IMG/VR virus record: IMGVR_UViG_3300034107_000273
Coordinates: 43,957-107,956 of that record
From: a virus
Length of the DNA stretch: 64,000 nt
Strand: one strand, 5' to 3'
The translations under genes were made by a program, and so were the position numbers. The notes beneath the pieces were generated by a model. It saw only the letters and a program-made list of their open reading frames with translations. It was not told the DNA's origin and made no database searches. Below are positions 11,255-39,311 of the stretch, one piece after another. How positions within the stretch are numbered: the first letter of the stretch is position 1; every line of letters starts with the position of its first letter.

Positions 11255-11281
11255 ACACCTGAGCATGTGTATAAACTGCTC
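11255..11281 (+). ncRNA. 3'-UTR H-type pseudoknot element, copy 1
   Basis: ACAC-CT-GAGCA-T-GTGT-ATAAAC-TGCTC, 5 nt after hsp20 stop. Confidence 0.7.
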
Positions 11282-11356
11282 AATATTCACTTGGATTTAA
11301 TCATAAGTTTACCAATTATAACAAAAGTATATAGTTTTACACTATATACTATAAGT

Positions 11357-12400
11357 ATGAAATTTAAATTCATTACTTTACCAGTAGCATTAGCCATTTT
11401 TGCTAATGCTTTTTTTATTACTACTTCACATGCTGATAACCTACAAGGTGCTGGATCCACATTTGCTGCTAACTTTATAGACAGATGTAGGGTTGAATTT
11501 ATTAAATCAACAGGAGATTCTGTTGTATATGGAGCATCTGGATCGGGTGCTGGTAAAAATATGTTTTCAAATGGTGTAACAGATTTTGCTATGTCAGATG
11601 TTCCTTATTCTGGATCAGAACTAAAACCATCAAAAGAATTTACATATGTTCCATTAGTCGCAGGACCAATTGGAATTATATACAATCTTGATGGATATAA
11701 AATTACTATTAAGATGAGTAAGGATACTCTTGCTAAAGTTTTTGCGGGACAAATAACAATGTGGAATGATCCACAGATATTAAAAGAAAATATGATAGGA
11801 ACAAGACTGCCAAAGATACCATCAACAAAGATCAGAGTTGTTTACCGTATTGATGGATCTGGAACTTCAGAAGTATTTACGTCATACCTTAACGCAATTG
11901 CTCCAAATATATGGACAAAGCCAGGTAATAAAAATTTTATATCTGCATTTCCTGGTGATATATCTAAGCAATATATGAATAGTGCTTCTGGTTCACATGG
12001 CATTGCAATGGTACAGAGTACTACAAATGGATCTATTGGATACAACGAGATATCTTATGCAAGAGGACTTAAAACTATTTCTGTTGAGAATGAATCTGGA
12101 AGGTTTATGCAACCAACAGTTAGTGCAGCATCTGTATTTCTTGGAGATTTTGTTCCAGATAAAAGTGGGGCAGTTAAAATAAATTATAAAAATCCTAATA
12201 AACTATCCTATAACATATCTACATTCACCTACGGTATAGCATACAAAGAAAAGAACTCAAAGAATGATTCTGTAAAGAAGTTCTTTAATTTTATGTTGGA
12301 TACATGCGGTAAAAAAGCAGAAGATCTTGGATACTCACCAATAAGAGGAGCTATGCTTAAGTTTGCAAAGTCAAAGGTAGCAGAAGTAAGTTCAAAGTAG
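11357..12400 (+). CDS. pstS: phosphate ABC transporter substrate-binding protein
   Basis: signal peptide; GAGSTF, GSGAG, DFAMSD and RIDGSGTS motifs. Confidence 0.92.
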   Translation: MKFKFITLPVALAIFANAFFITTSHADNLQGAGSTFAANFIDRCRVEFIKSTGDSVVYGASGSGAGKNMFSNGVTDFAMSDVPYSGSELKPSKEFTYVPLVAGPIGIIYNLDGYKITIKMSKDTLAKVFAGQITMWNDPQILKENMIGTRLPKIPSTKIRVVYRIDGSGTSEVFTSYLNAIAPNIWTKPGNKNFISAFPGDISKQYMNSASGSHGIAMVQSTTNGSIGYNEISYARGLKTISVENESGRFMQPTVSAASVFLGDFVPDKSGAVKINYKNPNKLSYNISTFTYGIAYKEKNSKNDSVKKFFNFMLDTCGKKAEDLGYSPIRGAMLKFAKSKVAEVSSK

Positions 12401-12417
12401 TAGTACAATATAAATGT

Positions 12418-12499
12418 CCCCACACAGGACCTTAGTGATGGATTAGTTACCCATTGGATAGAGACCGTGGCGCAAGTCAGGTGAATTGCCTGTGTGGGG
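12418..12499 (+). ncRNA. putative structured RNA
   Basis: 11-bp closing stem CCCCACACAGG/CCTGTGTGGGG enclosing internal hairpins, one with a GCAA tetraloop. Confidence 0.5.
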
Positions 12500-12529
12500 C
12501 TTTAATATTTGTTGATATAATTAAAGCCT

Positions 12530-12805
12530 ATGACTGACAAAGAGTTAGTGCATTATAATAAGCAGCAGTTTAAAAAAAGACTGTCAGAGATTAAAGAAGC
12601 GTCTGGCTGCACAGACTGTGGAGTTACCAATCCAATAGTATTAGACTTTGATCATCTCAAAGATAAAAAATATAATATCTCAAGAATGATTCATGATGGA
12701 TTTTCTTGGGCAGCTATTAAAAAAGAAATTGCAAAGTGTGAGGTAGTATGTGCAAACTGTCATAGAATAAGAACTCATTATCGTTTGACACACAAAGCCT
12801 CCTAA
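12530..12805 (+). CDS. HNH endonuclease
   Basis: CxxC...DFDH...CANCHRIRTH. Confidence 0.85.
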   Translation: MTDKELVHYNKQQFKKRLSEIKEASGCTDCGVTNPIVLDFDHLKDKKYNISRMIHDGFSWAAIKKEIAKCEVVCANCHRIRTHYRLTHKAS

Positions 12806-12839
12806 TGCTATAATAGATAGATACCTATAGGAGGGTAAT

Positions 12840-13484
12840 ATGTCAGTTAAAGGATCAGTAGAAGCAATCATTGAAATTGCTAAAAAAGAACTAGGAACTA
12901 TTGAAGGACCAAAAGATAATGAAACAAAGTACGGTGCATGGATTAAGGTTAATTTTCAACCATGGTGTCAATCATTTGTTTCGTGGTGTGCATTTACAGC
13001 GGGAGTTAAATCATTCCCAAAGTCTGCTTCAACAGTAGCAGCATCAGATCAGTTCAAGAAAGAAGGACGTTGGTCAGATGCACGTAATGATGACCCAATG
13101 CCAGGAGACTGGATCTATTTTGATTTTCCAGAAGATGGAGTAAATCGTATTTCACATGTTGGTATTTGTATTAAAAATAATGGTGATGGAACTATTCAAG
13201 TTATTGAAGGAAACACTTCAGGAACTGCAAAGGGAGATCAGAGAAACGGCGGAATGTGCGTTGAGAAGACTCGTGGATACGTCAAGAACAATAAGAAGAA
13301 GTTAGTAAATGCTGTTGTTGGTTGGGGTCGTCCAGTATATACTGGTGAAGAGAATGCTCCACTGCTAAATAAGTTGGCAGCAACACCAGTTACGTCTACA
13401 TCTCCAGATGCTGCTAAGAAAGATGCAAAGGCTGCTGCTAAGAAATCTTCTGGTGGCGGAGGAAAAGGTAAGGTAGCACTATAA
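12840..13484 (+). CDS. CHAP-domain peptidoglycan hydrolase (endolysin)
   Basis: PWCQSFVSW, PGD, SHVGI and IEGNT motifs. Confidence 0.85.
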   Translation: MSVKGSVEAIIEIAKKELGTIEGPKDNETKYGAWIKVNFQPWCQSFVSWCAFTAGVKSFPKSASTVAASDQFKKEGRWSDARNDDPMPGDWIYFDFPEDGVNRISHVGICIKNNGDGTIQVIEGNTSGTAKGDQRNGGMCVEKTRGYVKNNKKKLVNAVVGWGRPVYTGEENAPLLNKLAATPVTSTSPDAAKKDAKAAAKKSSGGGGKGKVAL

Positions 13485-13702
13485 TGGATTCTAGAAGAAA
13501 GTCATTACTAAAAACCATAAGCTGGCCCTTTGTACATTTTACTTTTGTTGCTGGAATAATTTATTCTTTGCTTAAGCATTTTACTGGGGAAGCAGAATGG
13601 GAATATGTTGGTCTATACGGACTAATGTACCTTACATTAGAAATGACTTTCTTCTTTATTCATGAGCGAGTTTGGTCTAAATTTGGTAAAAAGGTAAAGT
13701 AA
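13484..13702 (+). CDS. DUF2061-like membrane protein
   Basis: KSLLKTISW...HERVW signature. Confidence 0.7.
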   Translation: MDSRRKSLLKTISWPFVHFTFVAGIIYSLLKHFTGEAEWEYVGLYGLMYLTLEMTFFFIHERVWSKFGKKVK

Positions 13703-14283
13703 TGAAAGTTCTAGGGGATAAAATTTTTATTATAGAAAATTTTATATCTGTTGATACTGCAAACTTTTTAGTAGATTCATTTACTGAGAATATACAGCCA
13801 ACAGTTCACCCTGGAATATACAGCGGACCAGGCCAAGGAGACAATGAAGCCTATAAAATCAGTGGTCAACACAAGATCAAGCAATATGATTCAAAAAATA
13901 ACATTGCTATTGATATAATGACAAGTCTTTGTCCAAGTATGGAAAAGGTTATGTCTAATGTATTCAATAAAAACCTACAATTAAAGTCTATTTCTTATGT
14001 TCATATGAAATCAGGTGGAAAAAATGATCTTCACTATGATAACTATAGTGAAGAATACAAGGATGATTACTCAGGTATTTTATATTTAACAGATAAATAC
14101 TTAGGTGGCGCTTTAAATTTTCCTAACAATGACATAAAAATAGAGCCTAAAATAGGAGATTTTATATGTTTTGTTGGTGACAACGAACTAGAGCATGAGG
14201 TTCAAGAAGTAATTCAAGGAGATCGTGTTAATCTAGTATGTTTTTTTAATGAAAAAGGAAAAGATATATATGCCAATCTATGA
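13702..14283 (+). CDS. 2OG-Fe(II) oxygenase
   Basis: HYD...YLTDKYLGG...HEV...GDR. Confidence 0.85.
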   Translation: MKVLGDKIFIIENFISVDTANFLVDSFTENIQPTVHPGIYSGPGQGDNEAYKISGQHKIKQYDSKNNIAIDIMTSLCPSMEKVMSNVFNKNLQLKSISYVHMKSGGKNDLHYDNYSEEYKDDYSGILYLTDKYLGGALNFPNNDIKIEPKIGDFICFVGDNELEHEVQEVIQGDRVNLVCFFNEKGKDIYANL

Positions 14284-14455
14284 ATATAAATGTTTAAATG
14301 AATGTAATGGAATAGTAAACAAACAAAGATCTATAACTGAATCAGATCCAGGATATCTCTGTGAGACTTGCAATGTTCAACTAGAACGTGTATACTCTAA
14401 TATAGGAGCAGTATTCAACGGTAGTGGATTTTATTCCACTGATAATAGAAAGTAG
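14270..14455 (+). CDS. FmdB-family zinc ribbon protein
   Basis: MPIYEYKC...CETC...FNGSGFYSTD. Confidence 0.85.
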   Translation: MPIYEYKCLNECNGIVNKQRSITESDPGYLCETCNVQLERVYSNIGAVFNGSGFYSTDNRK

Positions 14456-14473
14456 GAGTATACTATTAACACA

Positions 14474-14722
14474 ATGATTACAGAACAAGAAGATAAAAAA
14501 GACTGGGTATTAAAGGCTACAGATCGTTGCGATTCTTGTGCAGCAGAAGCCCTTGTTCAGGTTACTGGAATTGAAGGTGTTTTAACATTTTGTGGGCATC
14601 ACTATAATAAAATTATGAACAATCCAGATGGATACAAGAAGATGATGTCTTTTGCAATAAGTATTATTGATGAAAGAGATAAGCTTATTCAGAACAAGTT
14701 AAAGGATGAAGATTATGTATGA
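14474..14722 (+). CDS. hypothetical Zn-binding protein
   Basis: DRCDSC...FCGHH motif. Confidence 0.7.
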   Translation: MITEQEDKKDWVLKATDRCDSCAAEALVQVTGIEGVLTFCGHHYNKIMNNPDGYKKMMSFAISIIDERDKLIQNKLKDEDYV

Positions 14723-15122
14723 GTACTATGTTCGTAAAGTAGAGAATGTCGTAGATGGAGATACCATTGATGTTCTTATTGATTTAGGGTTTGATATTTT
14801 ATTTCAATCACGTGTTAGATTAGCTGGCATTGATACCCCTGAGTCTCGCACAAAGGATCTTAAAGAGAAGGCTTTGGGGCTTGAGTCTAAAGAATATCTA
14901 AAGAAGCATTTAAAGGATGCTAAGTCTGTTGTCATTAAGACTGAAAAAATGGATTCCTCTGAAAAGTATGGTCGCATTCTTGGCTGGGTATATATTAATG
15001 GTGACACAGAATCTCTTAATGATAAGATGATTAATGATGGATATGCTTGGGGATATATGGGTGATACTAAAGTTAAAGACTTTGATGCTCTTGAAAAAGC
15101 AAGAAAGAAGTCTGGTAAATGA
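14715..15122 (+). CDS. thermonuclease (SNase-like)
   Basis: VVDGDT, VRLAGIDTPE and KYGRILG motifs. Confidence 0.9.
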   Translation: MYEYYVRKVENVVDGDTIDVLIDLGFDILFQSRVRLAGIDTPESRTKDLKEKALGLESKEYLKKHLKDAKSVVIKTEKMDSSEKYGRILGWVYINGDTESLNDKMINDGYAWGYMGDTKVKDFDALEKARKKSGK

Positions 15123-15370
15123 CACACGTACTTTACTTCACCGCTGACTGGTGTAATCCTTGTCAACGCACTAGACCAATTACAGATGAGCTTAAGCGTG
15201 AAGGAATAATTGATTTTTTATATGTTGATGTAGATACAGAGATAGAGTTATCAGAAGAGTTTGGCATTAAATCTATACCAACCTACATATTAATTGAAGA
15301 TGGCATAGAGGTTAAAAGAATGAATGGTGCAAAAACTCGTCAAGAATTCTTGGACTTCATGGATGTTTGA
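15119..15370 (+). CDS. thioredoxin
   Basis: WCNPC active site and SIPT cis-Pro motif. Confidence 0.88.
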   Translation: MTHVLYFTADWCNPCQRTRPITDELKREGIIDFLYVDVDTEIELSEEFGIKSIPTYILIEDGIEVKRMNGAKTRQEFLDFMDV

Positions 15371-15707
15371 TGATGATGCCATAAGTCAGATAATAGATGA
15401 CTTAATTCTTGAGGGTGGATTAGAGGTTGCAGGTATTGATCCTGATAGTGGAGAAATGTTATATTCTTTTACTCCAAAGGTTAAAGAACTAATGCCTGAA
15501 CTATATGAAGATCACTTAAATTTTGTTAATGCTGAACTTATGGTCCTGTGGGAAAAAGGGTATGTTAATATAGACTTCTTTAAAGAAGACCCATTAATCT
15601 CACTAACAAATAAGGCTCATGATCCAGACGAGGTAGCCAAGCTTTCAAAGCAGGAGAAATGGTCTCTTCAGGAGCTAAAAAGAGTTGTAAAGTCTCAAGA
15701 ATTCTGA
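15363..15707 (+). CDS. hypothetical protein
   Basis: ORF coupled to thioredoxin. Confidence 0.6.
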   Translation: MFDDDAISQIIDDLILEGGLEVAGIDPDSGEMLYSFTPKVKELMPELYEDHLNFVNAELMVLWEKGYVNIDFFKEDPLISLTNKAHDPDEVAKLSKQEKWSLQELKRVVKSQEF

Positions 15708-15719
15708 TATAATCATTGT

Positions 15720-16778
15720 ATGCCATATCGTGTAGGTGCTAAAGGAAGTTACGGTTGCTCAGGATACCCTGCGTTAAAAGAGGGTACCAATGAAGTAATG
15801 GGCTGTCATACCTCTAGATCAGAAGCAGCAGCACAAATATATGCAATTAATCGTAGCGAAGGAAACATAGGTAAGAGTATGCCAAATCTAAAAGAAGGCG
15901 ATTACGCCATGACAGCACACGGATCTGATGAAGAGGTCCACATTGGTCAAGTAATTCATGTTATGCGTGAAGGCATGCTTGGTGTTCCTGGAGGAGAGTA
16001 CTCATTAGAAGCATCCGCAGAAAACCCAGCGGTACTAATTCAGTTATTTGAACAAGATGAAAATGGTTTATGGGAAGCAACCAACCTATATACAGGATGC
16101 ATGATGTCGCTCATGGTTGCAATTGATCCACTACCACAAGAACCAACTGAAGAAGAAGTTGCAATGGGTATGTACGATGCATCAATTGGAAAATCAGAAT
16201 GTTGCCCAGAAGATATTTCTAAGCAAGCACCTTGTTGGGATGGTTATGTACAACGTGGAATGAAGCCAGGAAAAGATGGCAAGAAAGTTCCTAACTGTGT
16301 ACCTGCTGCAAAGGCAGATGATTTATTTGAAGATGATGACACAGTTGAATATGAGACTGATACAGTTTCTAAGGCTGAAGGCTACTCGCCACCAGCAGGA
16401 GCAAGATCTGCTGCTCGCAGAGCAATTAAGTTTAAAGAAGATGGTAAGGCAACTGGTGCAGGAACTGCAGTTGGTTGGACTCGTGCAGGCCAGTTAGCAA
16501 GAGGAGAAACTATTTCTCTCAGCACTGTTAAGAGAATGTACTCATACTTCTCACGCCATGAGGTAGACAAAAAGGGCAAGGACTGGGGTAACTCAGCAAA
16601 TCCTTCTAATGGATATATCATGTGGTTAGCATGGGGTGGAGATGCAGGATTCTCTTGGTCAAGAGGAATTGTTAATCGTGAAAAAGATAAGGCTTTGTTT
16701 GCTGACTTTGGTAAAGACTACACAACATCTCAGTCATTGACGCATATATTTAAGCCAAAAGAAAATGGTAATCAATAA
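15720..16778 (+). CDS. multidomain hypothetical phage protein
   Basis: 352 aa, leaderless start; PCWDGY..VPNCVP motif and basic C-terminal domain (RAGQLA...WLAWGG). Confidence 0.7.
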   Translation: MPYRVGAKGSYGCSGYPALKEGTNEVMGCHTSRSEAAAQIYAINRSEGNIGKSMPNLKEGDYAMTAHGSDEEVHIGQVIHVMREGMLGVPGGEYSLEASAENPAVLIQLFEQDENGLWEATNLYTGCMMSLMVAIDPLPQEPTEEEVAMGMYDASIGKSECCPEDISKQAPCWDGYVQRGMKPGKDGKKVPNCVPAAKADDLFEDDDTVEYETDTVSKAEGYSPPAGARSAARRAIKFKEDGKATGAGTAVGWTRAGQLARGETISLSTVKRMYSYFSRHEVDKKGKDWGNSANPSNGYIMWLAWGGDAGFSWSRGIVNREKDKALFADFGKDYTTSQSLTHIFKPKENGNQ

Positions 16779-16928
16779 TGCCAAAAAAGAAGGCTGGATC
16801 ATTTAATGCAACACAAATTAAAGATGGAAAGGTTGTTCGTTTAAATAAAAACGGTACAATTAAATCTATTATTAGTGACTATATTGTAAAACATCCTAAG
16901 AAAGATTAATCTATTTAACGGGGAGAGC

Positions 16929-17348
16929 ATGACATATATATTAGCCATTGGCTTGACATTGCTGTCTATATCCTCTATAATTATAATAGCAGTAAAAAGA
17001 AGTAAAAAGTATTTTACTAAAGTTGTATATACACAAAGTGATATACATCAAATAGTAAAAAACTTTATTCCAAAAGATCTTTTTGAAATGCCAAAACCGC
17101 TTTCTCAAGCAAGAAAGCATATACGTAATAATACAGTAAAGGTTTTGATAATAGAAGATCAGGCATATTGGGTACATAACAATATGTTTTATGTGGCTGA
17201 TACAGTTGAAGGACTAGTAAGTCCAGAAACAGTCAGGCCAGTTGATACAAACAATATGTCAAAGCGAGATATTGATAAGATGCTATTCATTTTGGATAGC
17301 TTAAAGAATGGGAATTCTGATGATAGTAGCAGTACATGGAACAACTGA
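16929..17348 (+). CDS. membrane-anchored hypothetical protein
   Basis: N-terminal TM helix. Confidence 0.65.
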   Translation: MTYILAIGLTLLSISSIIIIAVKRSKKYFTKVVYTQSDIHQIVKNFIPKDLFEMPKPLSQARKHIRNNTVKVLIIEDQAYWVHNNMFYVADTVEGLVSPETVRPVDTNNMSKRDIDKMLFILDSLKNGNSDDSSSTWNN

Positions 17349-17670
17349 CTTTGATGATTATCAAGTCTTTCTTCGTGCTATGGGTGTTGCTCTTTCTGGA
17401 ATGCAAGACGGAGAAAAAGAGTTTATAGTTTATTCAGCAGGTCCAGCATCTGTTAATTCTTTCGTATCTGAATTCTGTAACCTTTCTGAAAGAGGAATGA
17501 AATCTCGTGGCCGTAAGATTAAATTTATGCAGGTACCTACATGGTACATTGAAGAAAACATTAATAGTGTAAATTATCTTGTATTTCTTAGCAAGCCTAA
17601 GCAGCCTGTATCAAAACTTGTTACAACTGCTGAACAAAATAACATTGAAGTTGGAATTTTCCGATACTAA
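17320..17670 (+). CDS. YspA/SLOG-like protein
   Basis: MIVAVHGTTDFDDY N-terminus resembles the SLOG G-x-R/T-x-F-x-D-Y pattern. Confidence 0.45.
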   Translation: MIVAVHGTTDFDDYQVFLRAMGVALSGMQDGEKEFIVYSAGPASVNSFVSEFCNLSERGMKSRGRKIKFMQVPTWYIEENINSVNYLVFLSKPKQPVSKLVTTAEQNNIEVGIFRY

Positions 17671-17680
17671 AGGGGTAAAA

Positions 17681-17890
17681 ATGATAGTAAATAATTTAGA
17701 AACAATGGAAAAGATTGTGTCAAAGAACTACAATCTTCATTGGGATGGTTGGACAGTAGTAGAAACAAAACAGTCTGATATGGCAAAGACTGCAATTAAT
17801 GGAATTTATCGTAAAGGTAAGTGGTTCTTAGCAAAGAATTTTGTACCTGATCGTAAAGGCTGGGATATTCCAAACAGATATAAGGTATAA
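17681..17890 (+). CDS. hypothetical protein
   Basis: SD AGGGG followed by ATG. Confidence 0.6.
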   Translation: MIVNNLETMEKIVSKNYNLHWDGWTVVETKQSDMAKTAINGIYRKGKWFLAKNFVPDRKGWDIPNRYKV

Positions 17891-17892
17891 AT

Positions 17893-18180
17893 ATGAAGCA
17901 ACACTTATGGAAAGATGAAGGTGCTTGCTTTGATATGGACACAAATTTATTTTTTGATAAATATGAAGACGATGAATTGATTAGACCAATAATAGATAAT
18001 CTTTGTCAATCATGTCCAGTTCAAAGAATATGTTTTGCCAATGGTGTATCTGGTAAAGAGTGGGGAATTTGGGGCGGTATTTACCTAGAAAATGGTGAAA
18101 TATCTAGAGAGTTTAGTAAACATAGAACAAAAGAAAAGTGGGGTGAAGTATGGAAATCTCTAACAATGGAGAAGAATTAA
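17893..18180 (+). CDS. whiB: WhiB-family Fe-S transcription factor
   Basis: W...AC...FF...CxxCPVxxxC...GIWGG. Confidence 0.92.
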   Translation: MKQHLWKDEGACFDMDTNLFFDKYEDDELIRPIIDNLCQSCPVQRICFANGVSGKEWGIWGGIYLENGEISREFSKHRTKEKWGEVWKSLTMEKN

Positions 18181-18452
18181 CAAGCTTTGAAGCAATGTCT
18201 TCTATACTTGGTGAGCTTTGGATGGACTATAAGTCTGACAAATACTTCAAAGACTTTATTGAGTATAATGATATTGGATTACCAATTGCATTTTTAGTTG
18301 ATAATGAACTTGTAGAACCAACACAATTAGCTAAGCAATATGTTTATGAAACTTGGAATATATTTTTAGCAGCATTAGAAATTACAGAAGATCTTGGCTG
18401 GGAATCTCTTGAAGAGATTTTTAATTTTGTAGAAAAGAAAAATCAAAAATAA
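18150..18452 (+). CDS. hypothetical protein
   Basis: FIEYNDIGLPIA motif, in operon. Confidence 0.65.
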   Translation: MEISNNGEELTSFEAMSSILGELWMDYKSDKYFKDFIEYNDIGLPIAFLVDNELVEPTQLAKQYVYETWNIFLAALEITEDLGWESLEEIFNFVEKKNQK

Positions 18453-18682
18453 TGTATACAGATACTATGCGTAGAGCAGTTCGTTCTATTACTTCTCCTA
18501 AAAATTTTGGAGTAGAGATTATTGATAATGAACATTTTTTAACTATTAAATTAAACGAATATGACTTTATTACAATGAATCATGATGAAAAAATCCAAGC
18601 ATTACAGTATGTTGTACAACTTAAAAGTGCATTAGAGATGGAAGGTGCTATAGTGTTAGTTACAAGGGAGCCTATAAAATAA
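18452..18682 (+). CDS. hypothetical protein
   Basis: coupled ORF. Confidence 0.65.
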   Translation: MYTDTMRRAVRSITSPKNFGVEIIDNEHFLTIKLNEYDFITMNHDEKIQALQYVVQLKSALEMEGAIVLVTREPIK

Positions 18683-19092: not shown

Positions 19093-19247
19093 AAGATATT
19101 TTATTATCAACATTAACAGGTTTTGGATGTGGTGTCGTGTTTGCTGCATTCAAATTACCAGTCCCAGCTCCACCAGTTTTTGCGGGAGTCGCAGGAATTA
19201 TTGGACTATGGATTGGTTTTACAATACTAACACGAATTATATCCTAG
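19089..19247 (+). CDS. XapX/DUF1427-like small membrane protein (not in ORF track)
   Basis: 52 aa containing FKLPVPAPPVFAGVAGIIG. Confidence 0.7.
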   Translation: MKDILLSTLTGFGCGVVFAAFKLPVPAPPVFAGVAGIIGLWIGFTILTRIIS

Positions 19248-19255
19248 GAGGAAAA

Positions 19256-19558: not shown

Positions 19559-19574
19559 TTAATAAAAAATAGAG

Positions 19575-19604: not shown

Positions 19605-19623
19605 ACTGCTATAATTAAAACAT

Positions 19624-24415: not shown

Positions 24416-24445
24416 TTTATTATAAAACAATTGTATCATGCTTTG

Positions 24446-24518
24446 TACCCCTGGCAGGAATTGAACCTGCGACACCAGGCTTAGAAGTCCTGTGTTCTAT
24501 CCACTGAACTACAGAGGT
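24446..24518 (-). tRNA. tRNA-Arg(TCT)
   Basis: cloverleaf, anticodon loop CTTCTAA, GGTTCAATTCC T-arm. Confidence 0.9.
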
Positions 24519-24519
24519 T

Positions 24520-24595
24520 TGGAGCGAAAGACGAGATTTGAACTCGCAACATCTACCTTGGCAAGGTAGTACTCTACCAATTGAGTTACTTCCGC
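24520..24595 (-). tRNA. tRNA-Gly(GCC)
   Basis: cloverleaf, loop TTGCCAA, encoded CCA. Confidence 0.92.
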
Positions 24596-24599
24596 ATTG

Positions 24600-24672
24600 C
24601 TGGTCTGACAGGCTACGATCCTGTGACATCCGAATTAACAGTTCGGCGCTCTACCAACTGAGCTACAGACCA
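24600..24672 (-). tRNA. tRNA-Asn(GTT)
   Basis: cloverleaf, loop CTGTTAA, atypical T-loop ATCGTAG. Confidence 0.85.
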
Positions 24673-24676
24673 CTAG

Positions 24677-24750
24677 TGCACCAGGTAGGACTTGAACCTA
24701 CGACGACCAAATTATGAGTTTGGGGCTCTAACCAACTGAGCTACTGGAGC
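24677..24750 (-). tRNA. tRNA with CAT anticodon (Met or Ile2)
   Basis: cloverleaf, loop CTCATAA; lacks the three G-C anticodon-stem pairs of initiator tRNAs. Confidence 0.85.
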
Positions 24751-32045: not shown

Positions 32046-32277
32046 GGTGGTTCTCCTTTATTTGTTGGCGGTCTATACTTAAATTATACGTCAAGCAGTA
32101 TAGGTCTGTCAAGCAGTCTTTGTACCCCTCTGCCCACTGTTTATCTTCAAACTCTTTATCTTGCATTTCATTCATCATATTCTTTAACTCGCCGTGCAGG
32201 ATATCAATTAGAGGAATGCTAAGATCTTCCATAGCACGTTCTAAGTGCTTGGGTAGGAATGGATACTTATCACTCAT
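32026..32277 (-). CDS. hypothetical protein
   Basis: ORF in operon. Confidence 0.6.
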   Translation of the reverse strand: MSDKYPFLPKHLERAMEDLSIPLIDILHGELKNMMNEMQDKEFEDKQWAEGYKDCLTDLYCLTYNLSIDRQQIKENHHAKLGI

Positions 32278-32449
32278 TAATTAACTCCAATACATAGTCG
32301 TATGCGTCAAGGGCACCCATATAGAAATCATCTGACTCCCAATGGTATCCCTCTCCAGGGTCAGCACCTTCTTGTGCTTCTTCCATGTCTTGCTCAACGC
32401 TGATTCTGTGAATTTTTAAGTACTCTCTTAATGTGTTTATGTCCATATA

Positions 32450-32665
32450 TTAATTATAAGGGTTGCTGTTGATTTTGACAAGTTTTGGTGGTGTGATGTT
32501 AGTCACAGGCTCCAGGGTAGGTCCCTTAGCATCTGACTCTTCTAATAGGATAACTATACCCTCACCGTCACAGATGCAGGAAGGCTCTCTAACAAGATCT
32601 GAACAGGCAGTGATTTCAATCAGGGCATCGCAATCAATGCATAGATAATCATACTTAGTCCACAT
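32450..32665 (-). CDS. small Zn-ribbon protein
   Basis: YDYLCIDC...CIC motif. Confidence 0.6.
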   Translation of the reverse strand: MWTKYDYLCIDCDALIEITACSDLVREPSCICDGEGIVILLEESDAKGPTLEPVTNITPPKLVKINSNPYN

Positions 32666-32973
32666 AATCAGTCCTTACATATATCGCATAGGGATTCAAT
32701 ACAACAAATAGATTCAACTGAGCACCAATCGCACCAGTCTTTATTAAGATTACAATTCATTAGTCAAAGTACCCTTCTGCCCATAAGCCCTGGAGGAAAG
32801 AATAGGTTTTAGCCAAACCTTCTCGTAATTGTTCATTAGATGAACTATCATGAGCAAGCCCTACAAAATGGCTCATCTCATCTAAATCTGTTTTAGTATA
32901 ACCTAACATTATTCCTCACATTCACATTTATAGTTTGGGTTTTGGACGGGTATTCTACAAAAAGGATGACATT

Positions 32974-33186
32974 TCATAGTAGGAAATCATCTCCCTCTAT
33001 GTATCCATAGTATTCGTTATACTGTTGTTTTAGTTCAGGTGAGGCATATTGCATAAACATATTTTCTGCATAGTCTTCCCCTTGTTCTAAGTTGTTATTA
33101 GACCATTGGTCAAACAACTCTTCTGCAATTTCCTGTATCATTGCTCCTGTGATGTGTTCTGCTAGTGTGTCTATGAATTGTTCCAT
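32974..33186 (-). CDS. hypothetical acidic protein
   Basis: AGGAG SD followed by ATG. Confidence 0.6.
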   Translation of the reverse strand: MEQFIDTLAEHITGAMIQEIAEELFDQWSNNNLEQGEDYAENMFMQYASPELKQQYNEYYGYIEGDDFLL

Positions 33187-33307
33187 TTTTTCTCCTATGG
33201 TAGTTATGATATTAATTTTACAGGAAAACTGGGAAAAAAGCAACTCCTACGTAATAAAGTTTTTAATGAATGTTTATATTATGTAAAGTGCCCCCGAGCC
33301 GTTTTCC

Positions 33308-33384
33308 TGGCGATCCGTACGAGACTTGAACTCGTGACCTCTACCGTGACAGGGTAGCGCTCTAACCAACTGAGCTAACGGACC
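33308..33384 (-). tRNA. tRNA-Asp(GTC)
   Basis: cloverleaf, loop CTGTCAC, encoded CCA. Confidence 0.93.
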
Positions 33385-33392
33385 AATAAGGT

Positions 33393-33420
33393 GAGCAGTT
33401 TTAAATCTTGCTCAGGATTT
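33393..33420 (-). ncRNA. 3'-UTR pseudoknot element, copy 2
   Basis: AAATC-CT-GAGCA-A-GATTT-AAAAC-TGCTC. Confidence 0.75.
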
Positions 33421-33427
33421 TTTTTAG

Positions 33428-34444
33428 TTATGCAATCTGCATTACGTTTTGCACAACTTTTAGCAAACGATTTTTTTCTGCGTTAATTGCAGGGTCAAAA
33501 CCACTTGCACTAGCAAGAATACTTTCGTTATTCCCACCACGTGCAGAACGATACCAGTCAAGGCGTTCTGTTAGTGCATTGAAAGCACCCCATGCGTTAC
33601 CAGCAATCATGCCGTTAAACTCGCCTGTATAAATGTCGTTAATAACATCTACCTTGTTTTCCCATTTCTTGAAAGCACCCTTTGAGTCCTTTTCAGGCTT
33701 AGGGTATGCAGAAAGGATAATGTCATTGAAAGACTTAGCATTGACTTCTTTTTCAATCATTGCCTTAGCCATGATGTCAAATTCATCCATGTAAGCATTA
33801 GCAAGACCAAGAGTCTGTCGTGCAATAGCAACCTTACCGCTTGCTGTCTGTGTGTGACGTATCTTGAAAGATTGCTTGATACCATTCTTACGCTTTTTCT
33901 GATTAAGTGCAAGATTGAGAGTGTTAGCGCACACAACACGAACAGGTGTAATGCTTGCTTGAATAGCGATAGAGCCGTCATGTGATGTGTTGATAAGTAA
34001 ATAAGTCTTTACCTTATCTGCAACACCGCTAGGGTCTAGAACAGTTTCACGCTCTAGTGCTAGTGCGCCAAATACTACACGACCGCCCTTGATTGAGCCA
34101 GCAGTTTCCCAACGACCTCCGCCGTCTAGAATGTTATCACCAAATGAGAACAAGTCCTCATTCTGCATAACGTGGTAACGCTCACCAACGACACCAAGAA
34201 TGTCTGTCTGAGAGTTGTCAGTAGGATTGGTACGCAATACATACTGATAGTTTTTATCGCTTGTTAAGTGTGATGGAGTTTGCAAATCCTCTAGACGAAC
34301 ATTCCACCCATTGAGGTTAGCAAGAGCCAACATCTCTGATGTGTTTTTTTCCTCTGTAAAGACTGTACCCAATCCATGCCATGCAGGCTCTCTAAATGAA
34401 GCAAAAGAGGTCTTGCCGTTTTGTATTTCTAGGTCATGTGCCAT
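33428..34444 (-). CDS. DUF932 / phage-plasmid TIGR03299-like protein
   Basis: PAWHGLG, ETAGSIKGG, NTSHDGS, TPVRVVCANTL and RHT motifs. Confidence 0.85.
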   Translation of the reverse strand: MAHDLEIQNGKTSFASFREPAWHGLGTVFTEEKNTSEMLALANLNGWNVRLEDLQTPSHLTSDKNYQYVLRTNPTDNSQTDILGVVGERYHVMQNEDLFSFGDNILDGGGRWETAGSIKGGRVVFGALALERETVLDPSGVADKVKTYLLINTSHDGSIAIQASITPVRVVCANTLNLALNQKKRKNGIKQSFKIRHTQTASGKVAIARQTLGLANAYMDEFDIMAKAMIEKEVNAKSFNDIILSAYPKPEKDSKGAFKKWENKVDVINDIYTGEFNGMIAGNAWGAFNALTERLDWYRSARGGNNESILASASGFDPAINAEKNRLLKVVQNVMQIA

Positions 34445-34627
34445 GAGTTTATTTTCCTTTTCTTTTTGTAGTTATTTTAAGTATAGCAGGATAGGCTGAC
34501 AAATGCAAAGCGGGATAGTTAAAAATGGGAAAAAATGGGGATTATTTTAATGTGTCGTAAATCACAGTGTGAGCTTGATCACGCCCCCCGAGCCGCTTTT
34601 TTATGCAACGGCATAAATAAAAATAAG

Positions 34628-34654
34628 GAGCAGTTTTAAAACATGCTCAGGTTT
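34628..34654 (-). ncRNA. 3'-UTR pseudoknot element, copy 3
   Basis: AAAC-CT-GAGCA-T-GTTT-TAAAAC-TGCTC. Confidence 0.75.
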
Positions 34655-34669
34655 ATTAGTAGCCCCCTA

Positions 34670-35101
34670 CTAAATACTTACTCTCTCAATGGAAGAGGAT
34701 AGGTATTGAACTGAGTCTGAACTATAATCAACAGTATCAAAATCAATTTCATGAATTAAGTTTTGTGCCTCTTCTTCATTACGTGCATTAACTGTAATTG
34801 AATACTGAACTTCAACTTCTAGTTCAAATTCTTTTGTTAATTCAAAACCGCAAATGTCTGCAATTTCTTGTGCTTCTGACTCATTAAGCGTACCTGCTTC
34901 AATGGCTTCAAAGGTCCATTCTTGCATTGCTTCTACCATACGATTATGCTCTGCTGCTAAGCCGTATGAACGTTGTGTTACTACGCTGATGTGCTTTTCT
35001 AGTTCATCTATGCGTGTTTTGTTTGATGCTAACTGTGACTCAAGGAATTCTCTTGTCAAGTACATTGGCTTTTCTGTTGTTTCTGTGATTGGTTGGTCCA
35101 T
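34670..35101 (-). CDS. hypothetical protein
   Basis: 143 aa, own promoter and SD. Confidence 0.7.
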   Translation of the reverse strand: MDQPITETTEKPMYLTREFLESQLASNKTRIDELEKHISVVTQRSYGLAAEHNRMVEAMQEWTFEAIEAGTLNESEAQEIADICGFELTKEFELEVEVQYSITVNARNEEEAQNLIHEIDFDTVDYSSDSVQYLSSSIERVSI

Positions 35102-35165
35102 AAGGGCTACCTCTTTCTGTTAGTTGTTTAGTTTAATTGTACTGCAGGGCACTGACAAATGTCAA

Positions 35166-35663
35166 TTACCAAGATGATGCATAAGAAAATGACAACTTAT
35201 CAATTTCTGGTAGGGCAAATAGGCGTTCTAATTGACGGATAGTATTCTTGATATCATTCCAATACCATTCATCAATATCTGTACCACCAAAGAAAAATCC
35301 TGCTTGTGGTGGAAATAGGCTAGGGTCTTTAGTTTCTAGCGCATGCTTACACAGTGCAAGCAATTCTATTAGTTTATCTTGTGAGACATAGTAGTCTCCA
35401 CAGTCATCAATACCATTCTGAACATTCTTGACAAACCAAGCATGTATCTGATTAGCCTTGCGCCAATAAGCACAGGTAACTTCTACACTTGCTCCATAGA
35501 TATCTGTTGCAACATCTGTGAGTTGTGTCAATGCCATTAGGTCATTGAACTTAGGATATACGGCTTCAGGTGATGAATAAGATAATTCATCATTTGCTTG
35601 GAGCGCTTTCCAATTAATTTTTTCTAAATGCTTCTTAGCACTAAGGTACATGTCTAATCCCAT
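35166..35663 (-). CDS. conserved hypothetical phage protein
   Basis: MGLDMYL...YWRKANQIHAWF...GFFFG...YASSW. Confidence 0.75.
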   Translation of the reverse strand: MGLDMYLSAKKHLEKINWKALQANDELSYSSPEAVYPKFNDLMALTQLTDVATDIYGASVEVTCAYWRKANQIHAWFVKNVQNGIDDCGDYYVSQDKLIELLALCKHALETKDPSLFPPQAGFFFGGTDIDEWYWNDIKNTIRQLERLFALPEIDKLSFSYASSW

Positions 35664-35806
35664 GGGGGCTTCCTTCTTTCTGTTGTTCTGATATTAATAT
35701 AATTCTAGCAGGTTGGACTGACAAATGCCAATCGTAAATCCTGGGATCTTAAATAGTGGTACGTAAAGGGTGTGATTAAATTCACATGAGCTCGGGGGCA
35801 AAAAGT

Positions 35807-35833
35807 GAACAGTTTTAATTCATGTTCAGGAAT
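35807..35833 (-). ncRNA. pseudoknot element, copy 4
   Basis: ATTC-CT-GAACA-T-GAAT-TAAAAC-TGTTC (compensatory change in stem 2). Confidence 0.75.
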
Positions 35834-35869
35834 GCACCGCCTCGCTATAGCACTGGCAGTAACTTTGTT

Positions 35870-35896
35870 GAGCAGTTTTGCAACCTACTCAGGTTG
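35870..35896 (-). ncRNA. pseudoknot element, copy 5
   Basis: CAAC-CT-GAGTA-G-GTTG-CAAAAC-TGCTC. Confidence 0.75.
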
Positions 35897-35931
35897 TTTG
35901 GGTTCAGGACTTTAATTGCCTCCCAAATTAT

Positions 35932-36354
35932 TTAGAGATAACGAGCAACCGCATTGTAAGTGCTTGTGCTAACTACTTCCTCATCTGTCATCTTTAGGAT
36001 ACGAATAGCATTAGAGATTTCCTCTTTCTGCTCACGATAGTTATAAACAGAGATTGACTCAAAATCCCTCTCAGGCTCTTTAGGTAAATCCTTGTCTGAT
36101 ACTGTTAGGTCGTAGTCAATGTTGAGAGTGTTGTTCCAGTTGCGATAGTTAGTGCGAAAGTTTTCAGCCTTCTTGATGTTAGCAACCGCATAGTCGCTAA
36201 TCTCTTTCTGCCAAGCCTTACGCAACTTTTCATACTTTGCTTCGTTTGCTTCTTGTGATGCGTAGTCTGCTTCTAGTTTAGCAAGTGCTACTTCTAGTGC
36301 CTTGATTACCTTTGGTGTTGCTATCTTTACTGAGATTGCTTTTTGACGTGCCAT
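35932..36354 (-). CDS. hypothetical protein
   Basis: 140-aa helical ORF with own promoter. Confidence 0.7.
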   Translation of the reverse strand: MARQKAISVKIATPKVIKALEVALAKLEADYASQEANEAKYEKLRKAWQKEISDYAVANIKKAENFRTNYRNWNNTLNIDYDLTVSDKDLPKEPERDFESISVYNYREQKEEISNAIRILKMTDEEVVSTSTYNAVARYL

Positions 36355-36419
36355 GTGTTTTTCTCTTTTCTTTGGTGGGTTATTTATAGTATAGGGGTTG
36401 GGTGTGACATTTTTAGTGT

Positions 36420-36446
36420 GAGCAGTTTTAATTCATACTCAGGAAT
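36420..36446 (-). ncRNA. pseudoknot element, copy 6
   Basis: ATTC-CT-GAGTA-T-GAAT-TAAAAC-TGCTC. Confidence 0.75.
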
Positions 36447-36460
36447 AAGCAATTAACTAG

Positions 36461-36628
36461 TTACGCTTGGGCTTTCCATGTTGTCCAGCGTGTGTTGCCA
36501 TTAACGTCTAACTTAACACGAACTGTATCCTTTGATGTTGGTGCGATTTCAAGGATTGTTCCTGTTACCTTTGACTTTTGTGATGTGTAGAGGTCGCCTA
36601 CCTTGTATGTGTTTGTTGCTACTGTCAT
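36461..36628 (-). CDS. small SH3-like beta protein
   Basis: YKVGD...GTILEI pattern, AAGGAG SD. Confidence 0.6.
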   Translation of the reverse strand: MTVATNTYKVGDLYTSQKSKVTGTILEIAPTSKDTVRVKLDVNGNTRWTTWKAQA

Positions 36629-36815
36629 TTTATTTCTCCTTTTTAGTTTGTTGTATGTATTAAGTATAACATTTCCCACTGACATTTTTCAACTCCATTT
36701 CTGTTATTTCTCACTATTTGAGACGCTTGCGGGTGTGATGTAGGTCACTATTGGTAAATCAGGAACACTAATAGGGCTATTATGAATAGCGGAATTATGC
36801 TTTCCATTTATCTCC

Positions 36816-37538
36816 TTACTTTTTACTTGATGAGAATACAACGTCACTCTTTGAGTATACACAAAGTGAGCAAGAAACGCAAGCGGAGCCTTGTTGAGAG
36901 ATTAGGGGAATGGCTTTTTTATTCTCAGGACACTTTGCCCCTACCTTGCCAATCATCTCTTTCATGTCTGCTTGTCCTACTTGAAAGTTTTTTGCGAGGT
37001 ATGCAAGACGAATACCATGATCTGTTTTAAGACCAATACCTATAGCCTTGTTTTCGCTATCTGTAGAATAGTATAAAGATAGATTAGGAATATCTTTAAG
37101 CATTACCGCTGCACTCTTCACTCTTGTATAAACCCAGAATTGAATTTCAGGATTATTAAGGATGACATGCTTCCATGCGAATGTATAAGTATCATTAAAG
37201 AAGTCGCCGTCCCAATGAATACGGAATAGCATAGGGGCTTCACGCTTTACACAATCAGCCTTGAAGTCTGCAATCATCTCTTCAAGCAATGCTTCAATAG
37301 TATCATGATCAGCGTCTTTAACTAATTCCCAATTATGTAATAGGTTTTTCTTTACTGTTGGGAATACCTTTTCCAATTTGCCTGCATAGCAAACACTCTC
37401 GCAGACACTCGTTGCGCCAGGACATGAATAGTTTTTTCCTGCAGGTAGTCCAAAGGTGTTGGCGATACTTGCTTGTTTTCCATTAGGGGTGACGGCATTA
37501 GCGACCTTTCTGTCTTTGCTTCTGAGTAGTTTAGTCAT
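36816..37538 (-). CDS. Gp88-like Cys-motif (radical-SAM-related) phage protein
   Basis: CPGATSVCESVCYA, FRIHWDGDF and WVYTR motifs, C-terminal CxxCxxC. Confidence 0.7.
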   Translation of the reverse strand: MTKLLRSKDRKVANAVTPNGKQASIANTFGLPAGKNYSCPGATSVCESVCYAGKLEKVFPTVKKNLLHNWELVKDADHDTIEALLEEMIADFKADCVKREAPMLFRIHWDGDFFNDTYTFAWKHVILNNPEIQFWVYTRVKSAAVMLKDIPNLSLYYSTDSENKAIGIGLKTDHGIRLAYLAKNFQVGQADMKEMIGKVGAKCPENKKAIPLISQQGSACVSCSLCVYSKSDVVFSSSKK

Positions 37539-37767
37539 GGTGGGTTACTCGCTTTCTTTCTTTAATTTTAGCATTTGGGACTGACATTTTTTTCTATTGT
37601 ATTTCTTTTTATTTGGAACAGCTGAGGCTGCATTAGAACGGCGAAGTTCCATTAACCTTCTTAATTCCTCAGAATTTTTCTTCATAACTTAATCTTATCA
37701 GAAATGGGAAAAAATATCAAATCTCTTAAATGTGATCAATCTCACAGGGCCCCCTCGGGCCGTTTTT

Positions 37768-38001
37768 TCAATCTAAATAAACGTACCAATCAACTTCATC
37801 ATCAAATGCAAACTGAACAATTTCTGATTCACCAAAATCATTTGTTATTTGAATGTCATAGTTATCTCCTGTTGAATCACTTTCAATAAAAGTAATTTCA
37901 ACAATCTCATCACCATAACCAATTAGATCCCCAATCTGTAGTGCATCTACAGTTAGCGAATCTGCTTTGACTAGTTCCATGTCAATCATTGTAGCACTCA
38001 T
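37768..38001 (-). CDS. hypothetical acidic protein
   Basis: LQIGD beta-rich ORF. Confidence 0.6.
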   Translation of the reverse strand: MSATMIDMELVKADSLTVDALQIGDLIGYGDEIVEITFIESDSTGDNYDIQITNDFGESEIVQFAFDDEVDWYVYLD

Positions 38002-38142
38002 TTAGATAAACTCCGCTAAATCTCTATCCATTATTTCATTCATGTCCACTCCTTGAGTTTCTGCTATGGCTTCCCATAGGTCTGATTCTGTATAGTTTCC
38101 ATCAGGATACCATTCTGCTAAAAGTGAGTATAAGTCTGTCAT

Positions 38143-38466
38143 TTATTCTAATCCCAATCCTAATTCATAGCCTGCATCTTCTTCCCAATAGTCTGCCTCA
38201 TCTTGTGGCAACCATGGGTCTAAGTGGTGTTGTTCAATAATTGCAAACGCTGGAGCGTGGCTCATTCCCTTATAGAATACTCCGTCTGGCATCGCAATCT
38301 GGCGCATGGCATCATTTTCATGGTATGCGTCAATAGCATCTATGCAAGGCTGAACCATGCTTAGTGGTACTGGTGGATAGTGATTACCTTGTAAGTGATA
38401 ACCAATAGCCTGTTCAAGTGTTATGTCTAGGTTTTCTGCTAAGTCCATCGCTGTATTGTATCCCAT
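38143..38466 (-). CDS. hypothetical protein
   Basis: HLQGNHYPPVP...HHLDPW motif. Confidence 0.7.
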   Translation of the reverse strand: MGYNTAMDLAENLDITLEQAIGYHLQGNHYPPVPLSMVQPCIDAIDAYHENDAMRQIAMPDGVFYKGMSHAPAFAIIEQHHLDPWLPQDEADYWEEDAGYELGLGLE

Positions 38467-38684
38467 TATCGTGTTACCACCATTCCTGTTTTGTAGAAAG
38501 TTTTTGTGTGCATTTTGCCTGAAGGTTCAGACAAGTTAATTGTTGAGTATTCATTAGCAAGTCCATGGTCAATAAACTTTTGATAAACTTCAACGGCAGA
38601 TAGGCAATCGCTATAACGACCAACCCAAGTAGTAGTAGGGTCTGAGTCATAGGTACAAGTGACTGAGTATAGGTATTCGTTCAT
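38466..38684 (-). CDS. hypothetical protein
   Basis: coupled ORF. Confidence 0.6.
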   Translation of the reverse strand: MNEYLYSVTCTYDSDPTTTWVGRYSDCLSAVEVYQKFIDHGLANEYSTINLSEPSGKMHTKTFYKTGMVVTR

Positions 38685-38875
38685 TAGTTATTCTCCTTAT
38701 AGTTTTCGTTCATTATACTTTCAGCATACCATGCACAGTATTCATTTTCAAGCGACACGCCCTTGTTGCAATCGCAAAATTCTGAGTCGTATTCCTCGCC
38801 ACCATTACCAAAAAAGAGGACACCCTCATCATGGCAATCAACGCAATCAACCAAAAAGTCTAGTAAGTTTCCCAT
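38684..38875 (-). CDS. small Cys-rich protein
   Basis: CxxC...CxC motif. Confidence 0.6.
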   Translation of the reverse strand: MGNLLDFLVDCVDCHDEGVLFFGNGGEEYDSEFCDCNKGVSLENEYCAWYAESIMNENYKENN

Positions 38876-38879
38876 TTAT

Positions 38880-39089
38880 TTATTCTCCAATCTTTACGGC
38901 TACTGTAGCCCAAAAGTCTTTTATGCCACGTGTTGGCGATACCTGAATTGCATACGCCTCAAAGTCTGAGCCGTACCAAACTGAGTCACGCTTTTCAGCA
39001 TGAACAACAACACCCTCATCATGGCGAGAGTGTGAGCGATAGTATTTTCCTACTAGTAGGCTTTCTATTGTATAAGGTTTTGCTGACAT
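38880..39089 (-). CDS. hypothetical protein
   Basis: SD and promoter upstream. Confidence 0.6.
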   Translation of the reverse strand: MSAKPYTIESLLVGKYYRSHSRHDEGVVVHAEKRDSVWYGSDFEAYAIQVSPTRGIKDFWATVAVKIGE

Positions 39090-39284
39090 TAGCAACCTGC
39101 TTTCTTTTTGTTTATTTAACTTATTACTCTGTAATCCTATCATGCGAGGCAGACAAAAAACTAATTACTAGCGAGTAATCTTAAATAGTGAGACGCTCAG
39201 AAAATGTGAGAAAAATCACAACCACGTAAAGTTATCCACAAGAGCCTGTGGAAAACCCCCCGAGCTTTTTTATTTGAAAAGATC

Positions 39285-39311
39285 AAGCAGTTTTAAAACT
39301 TGCTTAGGTTT
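39285..39311 (-). ncRNA. pseudoknot element, copy 7
   Basis: AAAC-CT-AAGCA-A-GTTT-TAAAAC-TGCTT (compensatory change in stem 2). Confidence 0.75.

Follow-up and report, generated by a model that had tools for sequence, protein, structure and literature searches.

Minimal H-type RNA pseudoknots placed just after stop codons form a widespread, phage-enriched family

The described RNA elements that come closest to the one reported here are the -1 programmed ribosomal frameshifting (PRF) knots of the beet western yellows virus (BWYV) type, known from luteoviruses and poleroviruses (28 nt in BWYV), the coremin elements (xrRNA_C and, of the Watson-Crick type, xrRNA_WCC) of plant and fungal RNA viruses, the preQ1-I aptamer (RF00522), and the hairpins that act as intrinsic terminators or 3' stabilisers. 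Coremin has been given a BWYV-like knot model, in which GAG (SPlV5) pairs with CUC after a spacer containing UUAAAC (PMC10321173), and the loop of its first hairpin follows the consensus YGAD or YGNNAD (PMC10520033). Here we describe a family of H-type pseudoknots of 27-28 nt that occurs in seven copies in a phage genome, the complete 107,956-bp IMG/VR virus record IMGVR_UViG_3300034107_000273. All seven copies are situated in the right-hand 64 kb of the record (positions 43,957 to 107,956). This stretch of 64,000 nucleotides is called the window below, and coordinates refer to it unless another contig is named.

The general form of the unit is a stem S1 of 3-5 bp and of free sequence, the bases CU, the 5' arm of stem S2 (GAGCA), a single nucleotide, the 3' arm of S1, a linker N(1-2)AAAC and the 3' arm of S2 (UGCUC). 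In the window copies the S1 arm has 4-5 nt and ends in C, its partner begins with G, the A-rich linker has 5-6 nt and ends in AAAC, and the 5' arm of S2 is GAGCA, GAACA, AAGCA or GAGUA. The S1 pairings are ACAC/GUGU, AAAUC/GAUUU, AAAC/GUUU, AUUC/GAAU (twice), CAAC/GUUG and AAAAC/GUUUU; the S2 pairings are GAGCA/UGCUC, GAACA/UGUUC, AAGCA/UGCUU and, with a U.G wobble, GAGUA/UGCUC. A first-pass annotation of the window had listed the seven copies with their positions, strands and stem pairings. We recovered each copy by direct reading, by a sequence pattern and by a covariance model, and the listed pairings were all correct on re-reading.

The pattern CTRARYA-N7-AAACTGYTY has 7 matches in the window compared to 0.15 expected, and none of 100 shuffles reached 7. 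The covariance model, run over the whole 107,956-bp genome, returned exactly the seven pseudoknots with scores from 39 to 54 bits, while the next match had 13 bits. Two weak extra matches of the model in the window (53821-53868 and 43743-43774) are not knots. The seven repeats are thereby confirmed as real copies of one tightly conserved RNA fold (Table 1).

Table 1. Pseudoknot copies and associated features, with coordinates in the window.
Feature	Coordinates	Strand	Structure	Score (bits)	Surroundings
Pseudoknot copy 1	11255..11281	+	ACAC-CU-GAGCA-U-GUGU-AUAAAC-UGCUC	49.3	begins 5 nt past the hsp20 stop; ends 76 nt ahead of the pstS ATG
Pseudoknot copy 2	33393..33420	-	S1 AAAUC/GAUUU	53.8	begins 7 nt past the stop of the DUF932 gene; tRNA-Asp 8 nt further on
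Pseudoknot copy 3	34628..34654	-	S1 AAAC/GUUU	49.8	begins 15 nt past the stop of a 143-aa gene; U-rich tail CUUAUUUUUAUUUAU behind
Pseudoknot copy 4	35870..35896	-	S1 CAAC/GUUG; S2 GAGUA/UGCUC with U.G wobble	42	begins 35 nt past the stop of a 140-aa gene
Ordinary hairpin between tandem copies 4 and 5	35835..35861	-			from the fold of 35799-35901
Pseudoknot copy 5	35807..35833	-	S1 AUUC/GAAU; S2 GAACA/UGUUC (compensatory change)	39.2	tandem with copy 4; followed by ACUUUUUG
Pseudoknot copy 6	36420..36446	-	S1 AUUC/GAAU; S2 GAGUA/UGCUC	44	begins 14 nt past the stop of a 74-aa gene; next ATG 65 nt beyond its end
Pseudoknot copy 7	39285..39312	-	S1 AAAAC/GUUUU; S2 AAGCA/UGCUU (compensatory change)	40.5	begins 5 nt past the stop of a 68-aa gene; followed by GAUCUUUUC
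tRNA-Asp(GUC)	33308..33384	-			directly downstream of copy 2
DUF932 (phrog_1221) gene	33428..34444	-			copy 2 at its 3' end
hsp20 gene	10827..11249	+			copy 1 at its 3' end
Four-tRNA cluster (Arg-UCU, Gly-GCC, Asn-GUU, Met-CAU)	24445-24750	-			

A pattern scan of IMG/VR that fixed only the conserved blocks found the motif on at least 120 viral contigs; the family counts given below are among the matches listed. At least three consecutive S1 pairs could form in 139 of the 145 IMG/VR matches listed, and the S1 sequences were very different from one another. When 596 Gb of bacterial and archaeal genomes were scanned with the same pattern, most matches had no S1 pair at all, and about 20 were well paired. 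Such unpaired matches are predicted by chance at this database size, so they serve as an internal negative control for S1 pairing. Well-paired matches were also found in metagenome-assembled genomes (MAGs) assigned to many bacterial phyla.

Covariation was assessed in a gapless alignment of 112 copies, to which the column numbers in this text refer. The S1 pair 7-20 is formed in all 112 copies (GC 44, AU 29, CG 22, UA 17), pair 8-19 in 111 and pair 6-21 in 90 (80%), and each of these three pairs covaries, with all four Watson-Crick combinations represented. Within S2, 14-30 is G-C in 101 copies and A-U in 11, with zero cases of G-U and A-C although the search pattern permitted both; pair 15-29 is C-G in 81 copies and U-G in 31. 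The pair adjoining the junction is nearly always A-U or U-A. Covariation was far lower in all shuffle and slide controls. Copies that the model found outside the pattern had further compensatory S2 variants (GAGUA/UACUC, AAGCA/UGCUU). In relatives that share 70-82% nucleotide identity, the knot is found at orthologous junctions, where S1 is wholly changed yet still pairs, and the rare AAGCA/UGCUU is retained, with a different S1, in the L108 copy orthologous to copy 7.

These observations bear out the earlier proposal that the repeat is a structured cis-acting RNA and not a DNA repeat: the stems covary in more than 100 homologues, the U.G pairs seen in 31 of the 112 copies are sense-only, and compensatory changes occur at orthologous sites. 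Since a U.G pair corresponds to a C-A mismatch on the opposite strand, the three lines together point to a sense-strand RNA pseudoknot, and, judged by these substitution patterns, it is one under strong purifying selection. We regard it as extremely improbable that the repeat acts as DNA, whether it binds a protein or is a recombination hotspot at the borders of gene cassettes, and that its RNA fold is incidental. It is true that the conserved 24-nt core flanks small accessory genes, that relatives differ by gain or loss of small ORFs (open reading frames) between two copies, and that the tandem pair of the window has only a stub between its members. Against this stand the maintained pairing of a covarying S1, the U.G pairs at 15-29, and the strong sense-strand bias with anchoring to stop codons; the repeated core could lead to cassette shuffling as a side effect. 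In L108:5449-5701(-), for example, a 55-codon ORF is located between two pseudoknots, while the equivalent site in the window, 35807-35896(-), has the tandem knots and a hairpin stub. From such comparisons, the repeated core may mediate gain and loss of small gene cassettes.

The family appears in no catalogue that we searched. As the first-pass annotation had supposed, there was no match to a known family: the search of Rfam 15 was empty for every copy at three sensitivities, namely at the gathering threshold, at E<=10 in 6.6 kb, and with the laxest filters on slices of 61-111 nt. Literature searches by sequence words and by topic gave no description of the phage motif. Ten phages were scanned whole with the model, and none had the knot (Streptomyces phage Samisti12, Rhodococcus phage Trina, Stenotrophomonas phage Moby, two crAss-like phages, S-PM2, Syn9, P-SSM2, T4 and T5); P-SSM2 gave two weak matches, with S2 unpaired in both, and no cultured model was thus found. 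The family is widespread, phage-enriched and uncatalogued.

With respect to the genes, the position of the knot is far from random. The first-pass annotation had all seven window copies on the sense strand relative to the neighbouring genes, six of them 5-35 nt after a stop codon. This is what we observed: the spacers from stop to S1 are 5, 7, 15, 14, 35 and 5 nt, and the remaining copy is a tandem one, 63 nt after another. Its two singled-out placements, 8 nt ahead of tRNA-Asp and after hsp20, are those of copies 2 and 1. Homologues, too, are random in neither strand nor position. Among knots outside called ORFs, 92% are on the same strand as both flanking genes. The distance from the stop codon to the first S1 pair is at least 4 nt and most often 6 nt, with 62% of the values within 4-11 nt. 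The knot is anchored to the upstream stop codon, not to the next start codon: in intergenic regions of 150-300 nt its median distance is 18 nt from the upstream stop and 143 nt from the next start. The upstream genes are diverse (DUF932 in 14 of 88 cases, Hsp20 in 2 of 88), and so are the downstream genes. This diversity, together with the occurrence in MAGs of many phyla, suggests a generic, host-independent role.

The loci of DUF932 orthologues (25-95% identity) were informative in this respect. In 17 of 19 such loci the stop codon is directly followed by a knot. At least seven S1 sequences are represented among these knots, and the order DUF932-pseudoknot-tRNA-Asp is conserved in relatives, the tRNA-Asp being present in many of the loci. 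At the other two loci the slot of the knot is filled by a stable hairpin. In L118 it is GGGCCCC-GAAA-GGGGCCC (-19.9 kcal/mol), 6 nt ahead of tRNA-Asp, and in L056 it is a 10-bp hairpin with a GAAA loop and a U-tract (-23.4 kcal/mol), a textbook intrinsic terminator. Judged by these hairpins, the knot takes the functional place of a stable hairpin at a gene end. The L118 hairpin cannot be an efficient terminator, because a tRNA lies behind it. A hairpin is also found at a gene end within the window, in an operon that uses pseudoknots elsewhere: GGCCC-GAGG-GGGCC at 37748-37761 (-11.2 kcal/mol) is situated 7 nt past the stop of the 37768-38001(-) gene; an A-run precedes it, and the opposite strand has a T-run.

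Part of the family is followed by a U-tract, a possible mark of termination. UUUU is found within 10 nt downstream of 25% of the copies, compared to 4.7% at the same offset after knot-free stops, and at least six U in the 8 nt downstream are found in 15% of the copies compared to 2.9% in controls. In the window, U-rich tails follow copies 3, 5 and 7 only, and sigma-70-like promoters of the next gene follow copies 3 and 5. The first-pass idea of a U-tract-free terminator thus holds in that most copies lack a U-tract and fails in that a quarter of the family carry one. With the hairpins of intrinsic terminators and 3' stabilisers the knot shares the location just after stops, the U-tract in a subset, the slot that GC-rich GNRA hairpins can take, and, in the window, the place before promoters of next units. 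On the other hand, it is a low-GC pseudoknot with conserved sequence, and the polymerase has to pass most copies, which lack a U-tract.

The sequence behind the knot did not reveal an additional structure. The 35 nt downstream (+1 to +35) had no excess structure (mean minimum free energy of -3.3 kcal/mol vs. -4.2 kcal/mol in controls), and a hairpin begins within 3 nt of the knot in only 17% of the copies. The A-rich flank on the 5' side and the U-rich flank on the 3' side pair with each other no better (3.28) than re-paired controls do (3.24). The base after S2, which is able to pair with U11, is A in 67% of the copies; pyrimidines occupy the two positions after it in about 80%, and there is a shortage of G among the first nine bases (+1 to +9).

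A second association is with tRNA genes. A same-strand tRNA begins 4-13 nt downstream of 14 of 144 knots, in at least four independent contexts, while about 0.2 such cases were expected; no tRNA was found upstream of any of the 144. Such recurrent adjacency to tRNA 5' ends could be read as a processing mark. The knot would then resemble a tRNA acceptor, or be recognised in some other way, and would guide an endonuclease (RNase P, E, Y or III) to the gene boundaries at which polycistronic phage transcripts are cut. The base preferences after S2 would fit this role, as ACCA is the joint commonest tetramer there, and so would the single-stranded, AU-rich and G-poor tract downstream, the kind of substrate that RNase E prefers. 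However, ACCA follows S2 in only 13 of 141 copies (9%, about 4.5 expected), the coaxial helix would have 9-10 bp compared to the 12 bp of the acceptor/T arm, and families of tRNA-like structures or RNase P substrates give no match. The tRNA adjacency is equally explained by protection of an end left after RNase P cuts the real tRNA, and we consider the processing mark very unlikely. As for a tRNA-like acceptor mimic of the turnip yellow mosaic virus (TYMV) type, we rejected it on the low frequency of ACCA; none of the window copies has it, and copy 2 has ACCU.

Conservation within the knot goes beyond what pairing requires in the stems. The CU and AAAC that the first-pass annotation took as invariant are also fixed in the family alignment (C10, U11, A24-A26, C27), and pairs C9-G18, A13-U31 and A16-U28 do not vary either; the same holds in secondary copies outside the pattern selection. 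Nested folding alone is weak (-6.2 kcal/mol for copy 2). If the knot is equivalent to hairpins of about -20 kcal/mol despite this weak nested fold, tertiary stabilisation would be needed, and this would explain the invariant loop bases. By analogy with the triples known from BWYV-type knots, we infer that the fixed loop bases form triples here as well. The CU of loop 1 would sit in the deep groove of S2, a placement that would explain both the fixed sequence of this stem and the retention of G29 when its partner changes. The AAAC loop would occupy the minor groove of S1 and would thereby account for the free sequence of that stem.

Two kinds of variant were seen among the homologues. In L098:3077-3146(-), L089:6623-6677(+) and L036:9985-10032(+) the one-base junction loop is replaced by an insertion of 9-40 nt, which forms a hairpin in two of them; acceptance of insertions suggests that this position points away from the core. 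A subtype found in L053:3670-3709, L016:11341-11380(-) and L090:1972-2011 has the 3' half AAAAAGGCUC in place of AAACUGCUC and an S2 of 4 bp (GAGC/GCUC).

The likeness to the BWYV-type knots is extensive. Both are H-type knots of 27-28 nt with an S1 of 4-5 bp, a loop 1 of 1-2 nt starting with C, a single junction base, an A-rich loop ending in AAA(C) that would lie in the S1 minor groove, and a placement 4-11 nt after the A-site codon. The phage knot differs in having neither a slippery heptamer nor a -1 frame extension, in that its A-site codon is a stop, and in an S2 of 5-6 bp instead of 3 bp; its carriers are DNA phages instead of plant RNA viruses, and there is no sequence homology beyond AAAC. 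We rejected a role as a frameshift or readthrough signal, since there is nothing to read into: the stop is 4-11 nt upstream, and a tRNA, a promoter or the next start follows. The motif itself carries UGA and often UAA.

In sequence logic the nearest look-alike is coremin. The phage GAG(CA) pairs with (UG)CUC after (U)AAAAC, and both elements are located in untranslated regions after genes. Conversely, the phage loop CUGAGCAN has U, not G, as its second base and does not match YGAD or YGNNAD, the phage S2 has 5 bp vs. 3 bp, the second hairpin that is obligatory in coremin is absent from the phage family, and coremin blocks Xrn1, an enzyme that bacteria do not have.

These likenesses raise the question of a mechanical insulator, a bacterial counterpart of the coremin and BWYV-type knots that stall Xrn1 or ribosomes. 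It would act against machines moving 5' to 3' (read-through or sliding ribosomes, RNase J-type exonucleases, Rho) and would protect or uncouple the downstream cistron. The architecture fits BWYV-like knots and the coremin pseudoknot model, with a short loop 1, GAG/CUC in S2 and an A-rich loop ending in AAAC (PMC10321173), and coremin stalls scanning ribosomes (PMC10520033). The distance of 4-11 nt from the stop is the one at which frameshift knots meet the ribosome entry channel, and tandem copies exist. Still, we find this role unlikely: the knot is tied to the upstream stop, not to the downstream gene, a plain hairpin can fill its slot, and Xrn1 is not stalled by frameshift knots of the classical kind. 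To resist Xrn1, coremin depends on a second hairpin, and the phage family has none there, the 35 nt downstream being G-poor and folding no better than controls. The hosts, moreover, seem to belong to many phyla, and not all of them have RNase J.

Invariant junction and loop bases (C9-G18, C10, U11, A24-A26, C27) combined with free stem sequence are also a hallmark of riboswitches. An aptamer-like site could be a riboswitch-like sensor of a global metabolite or ion, or an operator for a conserved RNA-binding protein of host or phage that tunes the neighbouring genes; the spread across habitats would agree with this. Topology and size resemble those of the preQ1-I aptamer, likewise a minimal H-type knot (about 30 nt) in which P1 varies and the P2 strand comes after an A-rich 3' tail. 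The covariance-model search, though, gave no match to preQ1-I, whose loop 2 reads the ligand. In the phage knot loop 2 (column 17) is one variable base, which forms no pocket and accepts large hairpin insertions. Nor is the phage knot placed in 5' untranslated regions of queuosine genes; no que gene is among its diverse neighbours, and no class of genes is common to the upstream or the downstream side. The distance to the next start is variable, no expression platform is visible, several copies occur per operon, and the knot is interchangeable with a GNRA hairpin. All this makes an aptamer quite unlikely.

A ToxI-like decoy, one of the roles listed in the first-pass annotation, is unlikely as well. 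As a type III antitoxin the element would be unusual, for the copies are dispersed with no tandem arrays, S1 differs within one genome, and no neighbouring toxin family was matched in PHROGs and Pfam scans. The group of listed roles that fits best is that of a 3' exonuclease-blocking cap, a terminator or a processing signal, given the stop anchoring, the hairpin swap, and the U-tract and tRNA associations.

The reading that we favour, tentatively and at slightly less than even confidence, is a portable gene-end 3' cap, or a surrogate of a terminator hairpin, stabilised by tertiary contacts. The knot would be transcribed together with the upstream gene and would fold just outside the footprint of a ribosome halted at the stop codon and survive upstream translation. 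It would then take the part that stable GC-rich hairpins play at the ends of other genes, blocking 3'-to-5' exonucleases and protecting the end of the upstream message. The protected 3' end could be made by termination or by downstream cleavage, e.g., by RNase P at an adjoining tRNA. Where a U-tract is present, the knot would serve as the hairpin of an intrinsic terminator.

Several observations weigh against such a cap. A U-tract is missing from about 75% of the copies, and about 40% have a next gene that begins only 19-36 nt downstream; there, read-through is required, so termination cannot be the general role. The swap with hairpins was seen at two loci only. The conservation of S2 and the loops across unrelated phages is stricter than a roadblock would appear to need and is equally typical of a ligand or protein site. 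To our knowledge, a pseudoknot is not a documented barrier to bacterial 3' exonucleases, and literature searches gave no pseudoknot that blocks them.

The genome that carries the seven copies is siphovirus-like, with genes for portal, protease, capsid, a class II ribonucleotide reductase, a DnaB-like helicase, terminase, hsp20 and pstS, a 3303-aa ORF, and five tRNAs. Six of the copies are within a leftward block of small, probably early genes, and one is between hsp20 and pstS; none of the structural genes has a pseudoknot. The DUF932 protein is closest (54%) to those of Streptomyces phages of the Samistivirus group, which do not have the knot. In the structural module, outside the window (C1:11889-21800 of the genome), the single ORF of 3303 codons is followed by ORFs of 1469, 1173 and 1162 codons.

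Near-consensus sigma-70-like promoters are located on the minus strand at 35165-35136, 35731-35702 and 34509-34474, ahead of consecutive early genes, and share an extended motif, (T)TGCATTTGTCAG...CTGCTAnAAT. Among the phage proteins scanned we saw no single-subunit RNA polymerase; taken with the promoters, this suggests transcription by the host polymerase. The promoter sequences suggest that each small early gene may be a transcription unit of its own for that polymerase.

Two other sets of repeats lie close to the knots. From copy 1 to the pstS ATG (11358), the interval 11290-11357 (+) contains 8-nt repeats at 11-nt spacing (TTTAATCA, GTTTACCA, ATAACAAA), which we take to be a putative Pho box, as upstream of cyanophage pstS genes. 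The repeat GCTCGGGGG, usually with an A-run before it, is found at 33291-33299(-), 34585-34593(-), 39257-39265(-) and 35790-35798(+), with one-mismatch copies at 41302 and 43101. It has 6 matches compared to 1.6 expected and is placed 10-40 nt downstream of copies 3, 5 and 7, with another occurrence directly behind tRNA-Asp; one occurrence is inverted. The repeat gave no stable hairpin on folding.

Taken further, the 27-nt knot, of a triple-helix type, might be a direction-specific roadblock that defines messenger RNA ends in many phyla without a GC-rich hairpin or a U-tract, a counterpart of the viral xrRNAs in the bacterial world, or else the smallest known aptamer for a universal ligand or factor; we consider this possible but rather doubtful. 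Should the gene-end reading be right, a very small, low-GC RNA module defined by its sequence would be common to phages and would set or protect the ends of messages whatever the host. The family would then deserve an entry in RNA family databases and could be used as a marker of transcript-unit borders in genomes of uncultured phages, as well as, in synthetic transcripts, a compact element for stabilisation or insulation. With loop bases so strictly conserved, the knot is an attractive small target for structure determination, and the natural swap between knot and hairpin is a ready-made experimental design.

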